Origin: a virus
Lineage: Duplodnaviria > Heunggongvirae > Uroviricota > Caudoviricetes
Length of the DNA: 64,000 nt
Virus record (IMG/VR): IMGVR_UViG_3300010049_000010
Location: 64,749-128,748 of that record
Reading direction: 5' to 3' (one strand)
Position 1 is the first letter of the stretch. Each line of letters opens with the position of its first letter. A program made the translations under genes and the position numbers. The notes under the pieces were generated by a model. That model was given only the letters and a program-made list of their open reading frames with translations, had not been told where the DNA came from and searched no databases. This document shows positions 44,718 to 56,381 of the stretch, piece by piece.

Positions 44718-45202
44718 TGCGAACATTTAAACAGATATTACAAGAAAGCACTGATGAATGGTTTATGACTAAGAAAAAAGTCTATACAATACAAGGAAGA
44801 ATATCTAATAAAACAGAAAGATATAAAAATAAATTAGAAGGTAATTCTTATGATATGTCTGACCCTCAATATGCAGATGATGAATGGGTAATTTTAAAAG
44901 GTACTGTAGGTGAACTGTGGCCTAATACTTTAGCTAAAACTTGTAGGACATATGGGGTAACTCCAGAAGATTTTGTTGAAGGCGAGTGGATTGACTTAAC
45001 TACACAAAAAGAATACGCATTTACAAATTGGGCCAAAATGAATACTGAACATATTGATTTACCAACAATGCATAATACTATGCATGGAAATCCTGGTAGT
45101 TATCTTGTTTGCACATTAGAAGATAAAGAAAAGAAAAATCCTTGGATAATACATGAAGATGTATTTCCTAACACATATTATACTAGGAATGAAGAAATAT
45201 GA
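44717..45202 (+). CDS. MRTFKQILQE-family protein
   Basis: Shared N-terminal decapeptide. Confidence 0.5.
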   Translation: MRTFKQILQESTDEWFMTKKKVYTIQGRISNKTERYKNKLEGNSYDMSDPQYADDEWVILKGTVGELWPNTLAKTCRTYGVTPEDFVEGEWIDLTTQKEYAFTNWAKMNTEHIDLPTMHNTMHGNPGSYLVCTLEDKEKKNPWIIHEDVFPNTYYTRNEEI

Positions 45203-45828
45203 AATTAACAGAATTACAACATGCTAAAAGAGCAGTTATAAACTTTGGTCGACTAAATCCACCAACAATAGGTCATGTAAAATTAGCTCGAGTTATGGCC
45301 GAAGCAGCAGAAGCATTAGACGCAACACCACTTTTATTTCTTTCTAATTCTTATGATGGAATACAAAGCGGGAAGAGTAAGCCGCCATATAAGAATCCCT
45401 TGCCATTCAGTTCTAAAATCAAATACTGTAAAGATGGCATTGGAGAATATGTGAATATTATTGATTCCAGAGTAATGAACTTATATGACGCATTAGCTGA
45501 AGTTTACAGAGCCGGTTATACTGAATGTTATCTTTTTGGTGGTGATGATAGAGCTGATGATTTTGATAAAGTTAAATCATATAATGGAAGCGAGAAATTA
45601 AGAGACAATCAATTTTTTGATTTTAAGATATTAGAAGTAATAAATGCTGGCAAGCGAGATGAAAATAGTAATAACGTTGAAGAGCAAGCTAGCGCATCAC
45701 TATTACGAAAATGCGTAGTAGATTTAGATTATGAGCGTTTTGAACAATTCGCAGGAACAAAAACTTTAACAGAAGAAATGTTTGAAGAAGTTGCTTTAGA
45801 AATGGGTATTGAATTTGATTGGGAGTAA
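45199..45828 (+). CDS. HxGH/ISSTxIR-superfamily nucleotidyltransferase (NMNAT-like)
   Basis: FGRLNPPTIGH matches the (H/T)xGH motif; SASLLRK matches ISSTxIR. Confidence 0.5.
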   Translation: MKLTELQHAKRAVINFGRLNPPTIGHVKLARVMAEAAEALDATPLLFLSNSYDGIQSGKSKPPYKNPLPFSSKIKYCKDGIGEYVNIIDSRVMNLYDALAEVYRAGYTECYLFGGDDRADDFDKVKSYNGSEKLRDNQFFDFKILEVINAGKRDENSNNVEEQASASLLRKCVVDLDYERFEQFAGTKTLTEEMFEEVALEMGIEFDWE

Positions 45829-45839
45829 AACTAAATAAT

Positions 45840-46448
45840 ATGAAATTATTTGAAAATATTTATAATCAATCATTACAAGAAAATTATAAAAAAACTTGTA
45901 GTAATTGTAATAAAAAATTTATATCAAAGATAGATATTTTTGGGCACACACTTTGTCCAACATGTGAAAAATCGGCCGCGAAATGTAAAGTTTGTGGTGA
46001 AAATATGCATGGTATGAAAGGTTGGCCGGAAGAACGAAAACTTGGAAAATGTTCTAATTGTTGGACTAAACAAGATTTGATTACTATTGGTTGGGAGCAA
46101 GATGAAAAAACTAAACGCGATGCGTTGAAAAATGCTGAAAATACTTTTATTAAATTAGAAATTGATGATGGCGATTTTATAATAAACCCTATGTCTTTCC
46201 CTGGTGGTGATGAATGGACTGAAGTTGATGATGGTGAATTTATTTATGAAGGAACAGTTGCTCAATTTATAGATGATATAACAAGCTACTATGATTACAG
46301 TCGTAACTCAGACAGAGAAGTACAAATATTTACTATATCAAAATCAAAGATTGCTGGATATTGTGTTGCAACACCTATTGGAAAAATATTTTCGTTTCAT
46401 AATAGATATGATGAAACGATTGCTTGTAAAGTTATAGAAAGGAGATAA
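45840..46448 (+). CDS. Cys-rich zinc-binding protein
   Basis: CSNC…CPTC…CKVC…CSNC. The start was moved to the ATG abutted by aactaaataat. Confidence 0.45.
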   Translation: MKLFENIYNQSLQENYKKTCSNCNKKFISKIDIFGHTLCPTCEKSAAKCKVCGENMHGMKGWPEERKLGKCSNCWTKQDLITIGWEQDEKTKRDALKNAENTFIKLEIDDGDFIINPMSFPGGDEWTEVDDGEFIYEGTVAQFIDDITSYYDYSRNSDREVQIFTISKSKIAGYCVATPIGKIFSFHNRYDETIACKVIERR

Positions 46449-46450
46449 TA

Positions 46451-46843
46451 ATGAAAACTTTTGCAGAAATATATGGAAAACCATTAAGAGAAATGAAAGG
46501 GAGAATTGAAAGAAAAGAATTTGAAGATGGAACAGTTTCAACAGATTATTCTCCTGAATGGGAAGAAAGCGATGTGTCTGAATATATAGCTGATCTTCAA
46601 AAAGCTTTACCTATGATTGACCCTGAAAAAGTTGCTTCTGTAGCAATGAATAGTTATGACGACCACTGGGGATTCGGTGTTGAAGACGTTGAAAGAGATT
46701 TTGTAGACATTCTTGAAGAAATGGGTATTGAATACCAAGGCGATAATGCTGGTGATGTTTATGAAGATCTAAATAATGTTACGTCTAAATGGTGGAATAA
46801 AGGTGAAGACGTTGAATATGACGACGAAGAGTATGAAGATTAA
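46451..46843 (+). CDS. acidic hypothetical protein
   Basis: ORF only. Confidence 0.4.
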   Translation: MKTFAEIYGKPLREMKGRIERKEFEDGTVSTDYSPEWEESDVSEYIADLQKALPMIDPEKVASVAMNSYDDHWGFGVEDVERDFVDILEEMGIEYQGDNAGDVYEDLNNVTSKWWNKGEDVEYDDEEYED

Positions 46844-54481: not shown

Positions 54482-54490
54482 ATAATTAGA

Positions 54491-54817
54491 TTAACAGCTT
54501 CTAGAAAATCCCGCACCACAAGAAGATGATGAATATGTATATCCTTTTCGTTCCATTTCTTTTGATGATACTCTAGTATTAGGTCCTTCTTTAATTAAAT
54601 TATATAATTCGCGCGCCTTTGCTAATACACTTTTAGCGTATGGGGTTCGCGCATTATCTAATTGTACAATAAACTCATACACATCTGATCTAAAATCATC
54701 TATTTTTTGTTTTGAGCTTCTTTGTCTGCTACTTCCGCCACATTCTCTTAAATGTTGTTGGCCTTCAACTAATTTATTTGAGGCTTGATACACACTTTCG
54801 AATAATTTACTAATCAT
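54491..54817 (-). CDS. small protein with a Ser/Cys-rich C-terminus
   Basis: …YTYSSSSCGAGFSRSC-COOH. Confidence 0.45.
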   Translation of the reverse strand: MISKLFESVYQASNKLVEGQQHLRECGGSSRQRSSKQKIDDFRSDVYEFIVQLDNARTPYAKSVLAKARELYNLIKEGPNTRVSSKEMERKGYTYSSSSCGAGFSRSC

Positions 54818-54826
54818 TTTAACTCC

Positions 54827-55735
54827 TTACCAGGAATTAGTGACAAGCCCGTCATTATAAATTACTTTGTAATTTTTGCGGCCTTTTAAGTAGTCCCTCA
54901 CATTCCTAATAATTAGTTTAAGTTTTTCAGAATTCGTCATAGTGTAGTTCACATCATCGACCATCGCACAGCCCCGTTTAACTAGGATCTTAATTCCTTT
55001 GAACATCTTTTTGGATAAGTCTTTTGGCCATTTATTTCCTTTGAGAAAAGTACTGCATCCTGATGATATTGGTGGACCTAGTTTAAGATCAGGCCAAATA
55101 TCTTTTATTCCAACGTGTAAATCGGGTTTGTGCGTTAATTCGTTTATCTTGATATATTTTACACCCCAGTGAGCAAGTTCCATTAATTCCATTTTAACTT
55201 GATGTTCAAATTCTATATGTTTTTTAACAAGACAAAAAGACACTCGAAACTTATCAGCATAACCGTCTTTAATAAGTTCTCTAACGAATTGCTGTCTCCA
55301 AGTATTTGGCTTACTCATTCCCATTATATCCATAGCAGTATTTGGATAAGCTGAACCAATAGATATATTGCATCCATCTAAACGGTTTAATAATTCTTTG
55401 AATCTAAATTTCTGTAATTCGTGATTTAAGTTTGGTGGTAGAGCTGTAAACATTGTTATTTCTTTAACGTAAGGTCTAATGAAATCTACTAACATTTTTA
55501 CTTTGTCAGGATAGAGCATTGGCTCTCCACCTTCAATTACGACAGATTGCCAACCAGTTTTAATGATATTATCTGCTATTTTTTCAACATCAATATTTTC
55601 TTTACATCCTTTCTTTGTTTTTTTAGCTAAACAATGAATGCATGCGTATGGACATTTTCTAGTTAAAGCTATATTTATGTATGGTGCACTTCCATCGCAA
55701 TTATTTCTAAAAGTAATATTATCCTCCGAATATAG
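54827..55735 (-). CDS. radical SAM enzyme whose CX3CX2C motif lies upstream of the first canonical start codon
   Basis: In the same frame, upstream of the track start (MLYPD at 55519), I read …TRKCPYACIHCLAKK…VVIEGGEP. The frame is open back to 55735 with no ATG, GTG or TTG. GGAGGA lies upstream of an in-frame ATT. Confidence 0.55.
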   Translation of the reverse strand, partial: LYSEDNITFRNNCDGSAPYINIALTRKCPYACIHCLAKKTKKGCKENIDVEKIADNIIKTGWQSVVIEGGEPMLYPDKVKMLVDFIRPYVKEITMFTALPPNLNHELQKFRFKELLNRLDGCNISIGSAYPNTAMDIMGMSKPNTWRQQFVRELIKDGYADKFRVSFCLVKKHIEFEHQVKMELMELAHWGVKYIKINELTHKPDLHVGIKDIWPDLKLGPPISSGCSTFLKGNKWPKDLSKKMFKGIKILVKRGCAMVDDVNYTMTNSEKLKLIIRNVRDYLKGRKNYKVIYNDGLVTNSW

Positions 55736-56381
55736 TTAACAGATATGGAATTGTCCCCCATTCAATTATTCCACGAATAGCGTTAAAGAAGTATAAAATA
55801 TATGCGCCCATTAAAACATAAGCTTTATTTTTCCAGTAAACTGCGATTGATAAAATATTAATTACGAGCCAAAAGAGCCACGTTAATGGATTCCACATAA
55901 TAAGTAAAATTGTTGCAATGTAACTTAATCCAGTAGAATATGCGTCTAATCCTACGGAGTTTGGATATGGAAATATAGTTGGTTTTATTTTATGTAAACC
56001 AATTGCTAATTTTCCAGAGCCCCAAGAAGCAAGTAATCCGAATCCAATAGAGAATAACAATACAGCTAATACTGGAATTGGAAGTTCTACTCCGCCAAAA
56101 GTTGAGCTGTAAAATAATATTCCACATAATCCAATTATATTTAATGGAGTATATATAGTCATTTCAACCATATCGCTATATAATCTCTTAAAATAGAAAA
56201 AGATCACATACAAGATACATGCGACAATAGCTCCACCCCAAGCGAATGTAAACACCCAAGGCGCTGTAGTTTCTGGATTGAAACCAAATGCGAAGACAGT
56301 TGCCGCATACAACACGGTTGCTACGATTTCTAATGGTAGCAATTTCTTTACAGATAATTCTTTCATATTATTTCCTTTCAT
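55719..56381 (-). CDS. pnuC: PnuC-like nicotinamide riboside transporter
   Basis: 220 aa with seven to eight TM helices. TWLFWLVINILSIAVYW matches the PnuC signature NWLLWVIINVISVV. Confidence 0.55.
   Translation of the reverse strand: MKGNNMKELSVKKLLPLEIVATVLYAATVFAFGFNPETTAPWVFTFAWGGAIVACILYVIFFYFKRLYSDMVEMTIYTPLNIIGLCGILFYSSTFGGVELPIPVLAVLLFSIGFGLLASWGSGKLAIGLHKIKPTIFPYPNSVGLDAYSTGLSYIATILLIMWNPLTWLFWLVINILSIAVYWKNKAYVLMGAYILYFFNAIRGIIEWGTIPYLLTIFGG

Follow-up and report, generated by a model that had tools for sequence, protein, structure and literature searches.

Depletion of nicotinamide adenine dinucleotide (NAD+) is a major bacterial anti-phage strategy. Whether a phage could rebuild this cofactor in the infected cell from imported nicotinamide riboside (NR) is the question raised by a 64,000-nucleotide stretch of tailed-phage DNA (Caudoviricetes; positions 64,749 to 128,748 of the IMG/VR record IMGVR_UViG_3300010049_000010), which was analyzed at its full length and is called the window below. 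An initial annotation, made from the letters alone, had proposed a three-gene set for NR salvage there, comprising a PnuC-like transporter, a NadR-like bifunctional enzyme and a second nucleotidyltransferase, and all three open reading frames (ORFs) are present with exactly the boundaries that it gave. The core of the idea holds, although a system of this kind was known before: the transporter and the NadR-like enzyme probably represent NAD+ reconstitution pathway 3 (NARP3), with the third gene standing apart. The new element here is a conserved insert, consisting of a radical SAM gene and genes for Cys-rich peptides, that splits pnuC from nadR.

The window (G+C about 31%) is a 64-kb piece of a 328,413-bp metagenomic contig (ENA ERZ27264051, k141_7313039). 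Since no near-identical DNA was found among isolate phages and the PolA of the window phage is at most 25% identical to that of any isolate, its source is an uncultured jumbo-phage lineage. About 66 ORFs of the window were covered by a Pfam scan, and the locus was compared with that of its relatives, the contigs L003 (329 kb), L005 (213 kb), L009/L010, L008 (2.3 kb, from the window's own sample), L011/L012, L013 and L016 (174 kb). The two genes that carry the argument, with their diagnostic motifs, are the following.

52947..53951, minus strand: NadR-like enzyme of 334 amino acids without a helix-turn-helix (HTH) domain, with a nicotinamide mononucleotide adenylyltransferase (NMNAT) domain at about residues 1-160 and a ribosylnicotinamide kinase (RNK) domain at about residues 164-334
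53901..53930, minus strand: GKFLPFHSGH, the NMNAT ATP-binding (H/T)xGH motif, residues 8-17
53514..53534, minus strand: ISATEIR, the second NMNAT signature (ISxTxxR), residues 140-146
53412..53438, minus strand: GVESVGKST, Walker A of the RNK domain, residues 172-180
53229-53243, minus strand: FVDSD, Walker B
53088-53108, minus strand: WVNDGYR, the LID with its Arg
55719..56381, minus strand: PnuC-like (Pnu family) transporter of 220 amino acids, or 215 where gene callers begin at Met6
55857..55880, minus strand: WLFWLVIN, the ligand motif WxxW(x)3D/N in transmembrane helix (TM) 6, residues 168-175 (W168, W171, N175)

The NadR-like protein matches phrog_3462 (E 1.2e-80), TIGR01526 over profile positions 1-324 of 325 (E 3.9e-57, 193.9 bits) and PF13521 AAA_28 (E 3.3e-24), and its matches in PDB are the phage enzyme Bas30_86 (9x6f, E 1e-44), Escherichia coli NadR (8x7f, E 2.9e-40) and 1lw7 (E 1.6e-34). 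All catalytic motifs of an NMNAT/RNK are in place, as the initial annotation had supposed, and the HxGH and Walker A motifs that it named were found, although what it spelled ISSTxIR is actually ISATEIR. Residues K9, F10 and H17 align with K10, F11 and H18 of Bas30_86, and H14, E81, W91 and an FSSE segment are also kept, of which all but H14 are common to Bas30_86 and E. coli NadR. Because the NMNAT motif begins already at residue 8, the protein has no HTH domain. Judged by its sequence, it looks like an intact bifunctional NMNAT/RNK. The residues docked in Bas30_86 (S37, P84, G89, D115, K163 and E230) were also tried as a test of membership and set aside, since E. coli NadR differs at most of them; the window protein differs from Bas30_86 at several.

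The protein at 55719-56381 belongs securely to the Pnu family. It passes PF04973 (E 3.4e-16, 60.2 bits against a gathering cut-off, GA, of 27.3) and matches phrog_1880 (E 1e-11), and its AF2 model, built on 39 relatives, has seven long helices in a 3+1+3 layout (pLDDT 91.5). In a Foldseek search with this model, 4QTN (chains A and C) was the sole PDB entry at E <= 0.001, with a probability of 1.0 and TMq 0.64. The initial annotation had called a PnuC-like transporter from its topology and a signature sequence, and had made the call depend on alignment over the PnuC core; such an alignment was found, both at profile positions 25-173 of 175 and at 211 of 220 structural columns. The motif WxxW(x)3D/N is the ligand-binding motif of Pnu transporters (PMC5749112), and N175 of the window copy aligns with N189 of NmPnuC (N214 in paper numbering) and with N180 of Bas30_87, the transporter partner of Bas30_86. 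The Asn and Tyr of TM7 and the TM7 gate Trp (W208) are retained, and 39 of the 39 nearest relatives match NCBIfam PnuC models, which score best. It is reasonable to predict that this protein is an NR importer. This specificity is assigned mainly because its PnuC lineage is genomically coupled to an NR kinase, the RNK of NadR, and Pnu transporters characteristically colocalise with a substrate-trapping kinase (PMC5749112).

The coupling could be followed in four independent loci (the window, L008, L011/L012 and L013), in each of which a NadR-like gene accompanies the divergent PnuC. In L008, a PnuC 66% identical to that of the window is followed 2 nt later by a NadR with 54% identity, whereas L011/L012 and L013 place the radical SAM gene and small ORFs between PnuC (51% and 41% identity) and NadR (46% and 50% identity). 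Neither NadR nor PnuC was found in L005 and L009/L010, though the flanking backbone is kept there on both sides, so that the pair is an accessory cassette at a fixed site. L003 shares the backbone, and at this site (L003:16530-18236) its NadR (38-41% identical to that of the window) directly adjoins a PnuC that gives E = 2 against the window PnuC and E 3e-12 against Bas30_87. These values point to a non-orthologous transporter replacement at the same site, and the transporter of the cassette has thus been replaced at least once.

Some of these loci have features of their own. The NadR of L003 lacks the LID segment (WVNDGYRF) and the RNK E..GR motif, and its kinase may be degenerate. L008 carries the PnuC-NadR pair closest to that of the window. 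Upstream of the pair (L008:1-1079) lies an ORF that has a signal peptide and ends in ...GYSF, recalling an outer-membrane beta-barrel; 540 nt of non-coding sequence, including a G+C-rich segment, come after it, and this contig could represent a bacterial (host?) copy of the operon. Immediately upstream of the pnuC–radical SAM–peptides–nadR series of L013 lie a phosphoribosyl pyrophosphate (PRPP)-synthetase-like gene (Pribosyltran_N/Pribosyl_synth) and a 185-amino-acid ORF (L013:5727-7329), the former being comparable to the PRPS-like Adps of NARP1, and genes related to NAD may tend to gather at the cassette site.

In the window, pnuC and nadR lie on the same strand 1.8 kb apart, within a minus-strand array in which all gaps from the HD gene at 57229-57810 down to nadR are 15 nt or less. 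The genes upstream of the cassette include the following.

57229..57810, minus strand: HD-domain protein (PF01966, phrog_5889), a backbone gene upstream of the cassette
59358-59891, minus strand: AAA_33 polynucleotide-kinase-like protein
59891-60628, minus strand: RNA ligase

The HD gene is probably the first gene of this co-directional array, and it is kept in relatives both with and without PnuC and NadR. Transcription would run from it through small ORFs, pnuC, the radical SAM gene, the two genes for Cys-rich small proteins and a 69-amino-acid ORF to nadR. A strong sigma-70-like site, promoter-like by its consensus match alone (11 of 12 positions), lies just upstream of the HD gene (57843-57814). 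Because promoter and terminator counts in the window were not above those in shuffled sequence, the operon boundaries proposed here stay provisional. No Rfam match at gathering score, either to the NAD+-II 'pnuC motif' riboswitch or to any other RNA, was obtained anywhere in the window. The HD protein also belongs to an RNA-repair-like set (57229-60628, minus strand), which holds in addition the RNA ligase, the kinase-like protein and a 510-amino-acid protein and is likewise kept in relatives with or without NadR and PnuC.

Given these genes, we consider it probable that the window pair carries out a NARP3-type import of NR and its two-step conversion to NAD+. The PnuC-like seven-TM facilitator would admit NR to the infected cell, the RNK domain of the NadR-like enzyme would phosphorylate it with ATP to nicotinamide mononucleotide (NMN), which would be trapped in the cell, and the NMNAT domain of the same enzyme would adenylylate NMN to NAD+. 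The NAD+ supply during infection could thereby become independent of host synthesis. By analogy with Bas30_86 and Bas30_87, the phage might then replicate despite NAD+-destroying defences of the Sir2, TIR or DSR type, and a counter-defence role of the cassette is proposed on this analogy.

The analogy is with a system that has been described recently. A PnuC and NadR operon was proposed in 2024 as a probable third NAD+ reconstitution pathway (bioRxiv 10.1101/2024.02.11.579819), and NARP3, consisting of Bas30_86 and Bas30_87 of Escherichia phage TrudiRoth, was demonstrated in August 2026: Bas30_87 binds and imports NR, Bas30_86 (structure PDB 9X6H/9X6F) converts NR to NMN and NMN to NAD+, and in combination they bring back both NAD+ and the growth of phage in the face of Sir2-HerA and DSR1 (PMC13464706). 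For comparison, the sequences of Bas30_86 and its partner were recovered from Salmonella phage bastian, and the residues named in the paper fit the paper numbering. The window shares with NARP3 a phage-borne Pnu-family transporter and an HTH-less NMNAT-RNK enzyme with the same predicted chemistry, and between the two NadR-like proteins homology extends from one end to the other (E 1e-44, about 30% identity), without the loss of any catalytic motif. The systems differ in that the window phage is a novel 328-kb jumbo phage, whereas Bas30 is a T5-like phage of Enterobacteriaceae; in that the window order is pnuC then nadR, the reverse of that in Bas30; and in that the window genes are separated by four others, one for the radical SAM enzyme and three small ORFs, whereas NARP3 is an adjacent two-gene operon. 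Over half its length the window PnuC shows only about 26% identity to Bas30_87 (E 6e-5), and two of the three residues essential in Bas30_87 are changed in it. For the proposed conversion of NR to NAD+ as a counter to NAD depletion, the transporter and NadR of the initial annotation therefore hold by homology to NARP3, but its third enzyme does not.

Bacterial PnuC-NadR salvage, as in Haemophilus influenzae and Lactococcus lactis (4QTN, 1LW7, 6GYE, 8X7F), shares the folds, the motifs and the principle of a facilitator coupled to trapping by a kinase, but the phage NadR lacks the HTH regulatory domain, and the window transporter, compared with NmPnuC, consists of the seven-TM core without the extra N-terminal helix and has Tyr for the TM3 gate Trp. 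Other jumbo phages also bring their own NAD+ supply genes, such as the gut jumbo-phage clusters (nhp215 pnuC-nadR-nadM; PMC11662467) and KVP40 with NadV/NatV (NARP2), and pnuC is common among them, being present in 68 of 174 'NAD-jumbo phages' (PMC11662467). Unlike these, the window was found to contain no Nampt, NadM/Nudix, NadD/E or PncB, and would depend on the NR route only.

Counter-defence is not the only use to which such chemistry could be put, and the cassette might instead serve metabolism in general, as an auxiliary module that helps to meet the NAD+ demands of a 328-kb phage, and not be a dedicated countermeasure against NADase immunity. We regard this as a serious possibility, though not the favored one. 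NAD synthesis genes are frequent in gut jumbo phages and have been so interpreted (PMC11662467), and around the cassette no defence or anti-defence context was detected, its neighbors being HD, RNA-repair and structural genes. Against this reading, no NAD-consuming family was found by Pfam among the approximately 66 ORFs, where Sir2, ART, Nampt, Nudix, NadD/E and NAD-ligase were all absent, and the DNA ligase of the window is of the ATP-dependent type. Moreover, the only experimental data on such a gene pair show counter-defence, and in close relatives the cassette is a patchily distributed accessory, as arms-race genes typically are. One role does not preclude the other. The initial annotation had pointed to NAD-consuming phage functions, but the weak candidate that it named, an ADP-ribosyltransferase at 27075-28838, had no Pfam, PHROG or PDB sequence match and is rejected as unsupported. 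The ORF at 27075-28838 adjoins a PD-(D/E)XK nuclease gene, as it does in the relatives.

Four genes lie between the two members of the pair.

54827..55717, minus strand: radical SAM enzyme of 296 amino acids, called as only 230 amino acids (54827-55519)
54491..54817, minus strand: small protein A of 108 amino acids, homologous to L011_62 and L013_49
54125..54481, minus strand: small protein B of 118 amino acids from the first start (107 as called), homologous to L011_78 and L013_79
53953..54162, minus strand: ORF of 69 amino acids directly before nadR, with homology to the N-part of L011_151

An ATT in the place of the start codon probably explains why the radical SAM gene was called short. 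The reading frame stays open as far as 55735, and the 72 codons upstream of the called start contain CPYACIHC (55631-55654) and GGEP (55520-55531); the ATT (55717-55715) comes directly after the stop of pnuC and is preceded, at a distance of 4 nt, by a GGAGGA Shine-Dalgarno sequence. The extended protein passes PF04055 (32.5 bits, GA 29.5) and PF13353 Fer4_12 (26.9 bits, GA 22), and its homologues P0111-P0114 (290-317 amino acids) cover 100% of the 296 residues and start with MTF where the window has ITF. In L011, the start is an ATG overlapping the pnuC stop. From this comparison, the window gene would either initiate at ATT or have lost its start codon.

The nearest families of the radical SAM protein are viperin (E about 7e-9, positions 15-197), viperin_w_prok and MoaA, with the radical SAM core alone aligning, and the viperin_w_prok cut-off is missed (38.8 against 180 bits). 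No match to a SPASM domain was obtained at E <= 0.05. The extended protein has conserved extra Cys residues at C13, C227 and C256, of which only two are C-terminal. Neither this protein nor NadR had confirmed relatives in IMG/VR (peptide-seeded scan followed by tblastn), and in 185k reference genomes the radical SAM protein matched at the generic core only. With radical SAM peptide maturases of the ranthipeptide or sactipeptide kind it has in common the CxxxCxxC and GGEP core and the adjacent Cys-rich small proteins. In contrast to viperin/MoaA and to SPASM maturases, it stays below every family cut-off, has no detected SPASM domain and ends in a C-terminal third that is unique to it. Both small proteins have leader-like N-parts and Cys/Gly/Ser tails. 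Small protein A has a conserved N-terminal helix (..LFESVYQASNKL..) followed by LRECGGSS, and its tail ends in ..SSSCGAGFSRSC; small protein B has a helical N-part, an acidic DDDVGSCG segment and a Gly/Ser/Cys tail that ends in Cys (...GGSCGTTQRQNSSTC).

The order pnuC, radical SAM, peptide A, peptide B and nadR is found in three loci (the window, L011 and L013) at a protein identity of only 41-51%, and in L016 a distant radical SAM homologue (29% identity) adjoins an ORF with two copies of the A-type motif, with no PnuC or NadR nearby. The simplest reading of these arrangements would be a module of a radical SAM enzyme and its substrate peptides that entered the pnuC-nadR operon of one sub-lineage.

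A closer tie could be imagined, in which the radical SAM enzyme and the Cys-rich small proteins belong functionally to the NAD module and make a modified nucleotide, or else a cofactor or inhibitor derived from a peptide, that would act along with NAD+ reconstitution. The conservation of the gene order in three loci so diverged speaks for it, as does the fact that viperin and MoaA, the nearest radical SAM relatives, act on nucleotides. We nevertheless find the tie unlikely. Because L016 has the radical SAM and A-type peptide pair without PnuC or NadR, and L008 and L003 have PnuC and NadR adjacent without the insert, the pattern is that of two independent modules; the likeness to viperin and MoaA is that of a generic radical SAM core far below the cut-off; and with the ATT start of the window gene, expression may be low or lost. 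That pnuC, the radical SAM gene, the small-protein genes and nadR act as one functional unit, in which the radical SAM enzyme takes either the small proteins or a pyridine nucleotide as its substrate, we hold to be rather improbable. If they did, the product might be a peptide-derived redox cofactor, an NADase inhibitor or an NADase-resistant NAD analogue, and it would cooperate with NR import and NAD+ synthesis against NAD-targeting immunity, as a more elaborate NARP3 with new chemistry.

Several observations weigh against NR import and conversion by the window pair. The genes pnuC and nadR are not adjacent, four ORFs (the radical SAM gene and those of 108, 118 and 69 amino acids) lying between them, and no NAD consumer and no evidence on host defence was found in the window. 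The NadR-like protein misses the NCBIfam cut-offs of TIGR01526 (193.9 against 341.15 bits) and NF005988 (170.1 against 201 bits), scores that seem to reflect a full-length but divergent alignment, like that of other phage members. The PnuC-like protein is very divergent. A search of 1.84 billion representatives brought up no more than 51 relatives at E <= 1e-3, and there was no match by tblastn in isolate phages, no confirmed relative in IMG/VR (exact-peptide seed scan followed by tblastn) and no member of its lineage in 185k reference genomes (exact-peptide seed scan). It narrowly misses the PnuC equivalog cut-off of TIGR01528 (40.5 against 42.45 bits), and also that of NF011926 (29.5 against 335). 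The NR contacts Q124, Q196, N214 and Y242 of NmPnuC are represented in the window protein by N, T, N and Y, which makes two identical, one conservative (Q to N) and one lost (Q to T). Residues N45, Q94 and N180 of Bas30_87, whose single alanine mutants each abolish NR binding (PMC13464706), correspond to Y, N and N, so that only N180 is kept. Among the gate residues, both Tyr (TM3 and TM7) and W208 are kept, but the TM3 Trp is replaced by Tyr beside a 3-residue insertion, where the alignment is uncertain. Finally, L011 and L013 carry D in place of the motif N, and the motif does not fix the substrate.

These points feed the alternative that the PnuC-like protein carries another substrate, such as thiamine, riboflavin or another nucleoside, while NadR uses only host-derived NMN or NR. 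The Pnu family does include PnuT for thiamine and PnuX for riboflavin (PMC5749112), and the missed equivalog cut-off, the changes at two of three Bas30_87 residues and the alternation of N and D at the ligand motif across the lineage would all agree with it. The contact residues are, however, suggestive rather than defining, because two of the four NmPnuC contacts are missing even from Bas30_87, a validated NR transporter. On the other side stand the linkage of this lineage to NadR-like RNK genes in four loci, the absence of a thiamine or riboflavin kinase nearby, the nearest relatives, all of which score best on PnuC models, and the TM7 Asn, common to NmPnuC and Bas30_87 and retained here. 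On balance another substrate is improbable, and import of NR for conversion by the NadR-like enzyme is preferred. D versus N in WxxWxxxD/N was also considered as a marker of specificity and rejected, since NadR-linked members of the lineage have either.

The third ORF of the proposed salvage set was placed with the help of its own neighborhood, a conserved block at 39494-47334.

Within 39494-47334: DUF6267 giant protein of 1171 amino acids
43019-43858: HD protein of the block, followed by two ORFs and then the nucleotidyltransferase
45199..45828, plus strand: phage 'cytidyltransferase-like' HIGH-superfamily nucleotidyltransferase of 209 amino acids, not part of the NAD module
46840-47334, opposite strand: LPD3 domain protein

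The initial annotation had counted 45199-45828 as another HxGH/ISSTxIR enzyme of the pathway. The protein instead has TIGH (residues 23-26) and SASLLR (residues 165-170), both accepted variants within the nucleotidyltransferase superfamily, together with FGRLNPPTIGH, NPLPF and GGDDR, and its AF2 model (pLDDT 93.5) has the expected Rossmann-like nucleotidyltransferase fold. It falls in phrog_3041/395, "cytidyltransferase", with 498 homologues in phages, mainly cyanomyoviruses, where they lie in the replication module between helicase and primase genes. It shares with the cyanophage family (T4-like cyanophage GC190) 30-34% identity, the fold (TMq about 0.8) and the motifs FGRLNPPTIGH, NPLPF, GSDR and SASxxR, but consists of the bare 209-residue catalytic domain, to which C-terminal extensions or fusions are added in many relatives (300-1270 amino acids). 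The order DUF6267, HD, x, nucleotidyltransferase and LPD3 occurs in L003, L005, L009 and L010 regardless of NadR and PnuC. Because it is a core syntenic gene in relatives without PnuC and NadR, 45199-45828 is a separate core gene of unassigned substrate, outside the NAD module. That it is a second NMN or nicotinic acid mononucleotide (NaMN) adenylyltransferase working with PnuC and NadR is very improbable, as it has no Pfam or NCBIfam match, gives an hhalign probability of 0.2% against the NadR NMNAT domain, belongs to a 'cytidyltransferase-like' group whose members reach TMq of about 0.8 in BFVD, where a genuine phage NMNAT comes only at rank 42 with TMq 0.55, lies on the opposite strand 7 kb away, in a block kept by relatives without the pair, and, if same-family membership is assumed, has in the S-SZBM1 cyanophage a counterpart annotated as cytidylyltransferase that was found in virions with its function described as unclear (PMC9146016).

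The block, which may encode virion-delivered enzymes, has in L009/L010 an AdoMet-decarboxylase-like gene and a methyltransferase gene in place of its HD gene. Between it and the DNA ligase gene of the window sit tandem paralogous B12-binding radical SAM genes (36897-38147 and 38119-39360, minus strand; 416 and 413 amino acids), which brings the radical SAM genes in the 64 kb to three, counting 54827-55717.

The phage genes of the window comprise family-A DNA polymerase, ATP-dependent DNA ligase, M23 peptidase, ThyX, PD-(D/E)XK nuclease, RNA ligase, a kinase and HD proteins, besides further PHROG matches. The polymerase is apparently split into two ORFs (16983-17891 and 18436-20541, minus strand), one half with the exonuclease and the N-terminal polymerase part and the other with the C-terminal polymerase part (profile positions 239-369), with small ORFs at 17908-18479 between them. 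Homing-endonuclease and NUMOD3 matches were obtained somewhere within the ORF set of the window. A bacterial-type extracellular solute-binding protein (SBP_bac_8/1/6, E about 1e-17) is encoded by the phage at 11251-12309 (plus strand) and is the second nutrient-uptake-related gene of the window; a lipoprotein match (phrog_200) was obtained somewhere in the scanned ORF set. The region 47831-51717 (plus strand) encodes a 1090-amino-acid protein with a very long central hydrophobic TM-like run and without a Pfam or PHROG match, followed by the M23 peptidase (51112-51717). Equivalents of the 1090-amino-acid protein, 995-1331 amino acids long, are present in all relatives, and a membrane protein for ejection, or one resembling a tape measure, may be encoded here. 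The window also has an SPFH/Band_7 gene at 31484-32512 (minus strand), and in the T5-like phage bastian two SPFH genes lie directly upstream of the NadR-PnuC (NARP3) pair (L002:1789-2732); their presence in both phages may be a coincidence.

NARP3 has been described mainly from T5-like phages of Enterobacteriaceae. The window locus would extend the same logic to an unrelated uncultured jumbo-phage lineage and suggests a wider distribution of NR-based NAD reconstitution, in a form whose PnuC is so divergent that standard annotation thresholds miss its identity. Two likely annotation errors are corrected at the same time, a radical SAM gene truncated by its ATT start and a 'cytidyltransferase' that had been drawn into NAD metabolism. 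The cassette behaves as a swappable element at a fixed site, being present, absent or equipped with a different PnuC lineage in close relatives, and its natural PnuC variants are available for asking which residues determine NR specificity. The insert between pnuC and nadR, for its part, could be either an independent phage module for peptide modification or a new accessory to NAD counter-defence.

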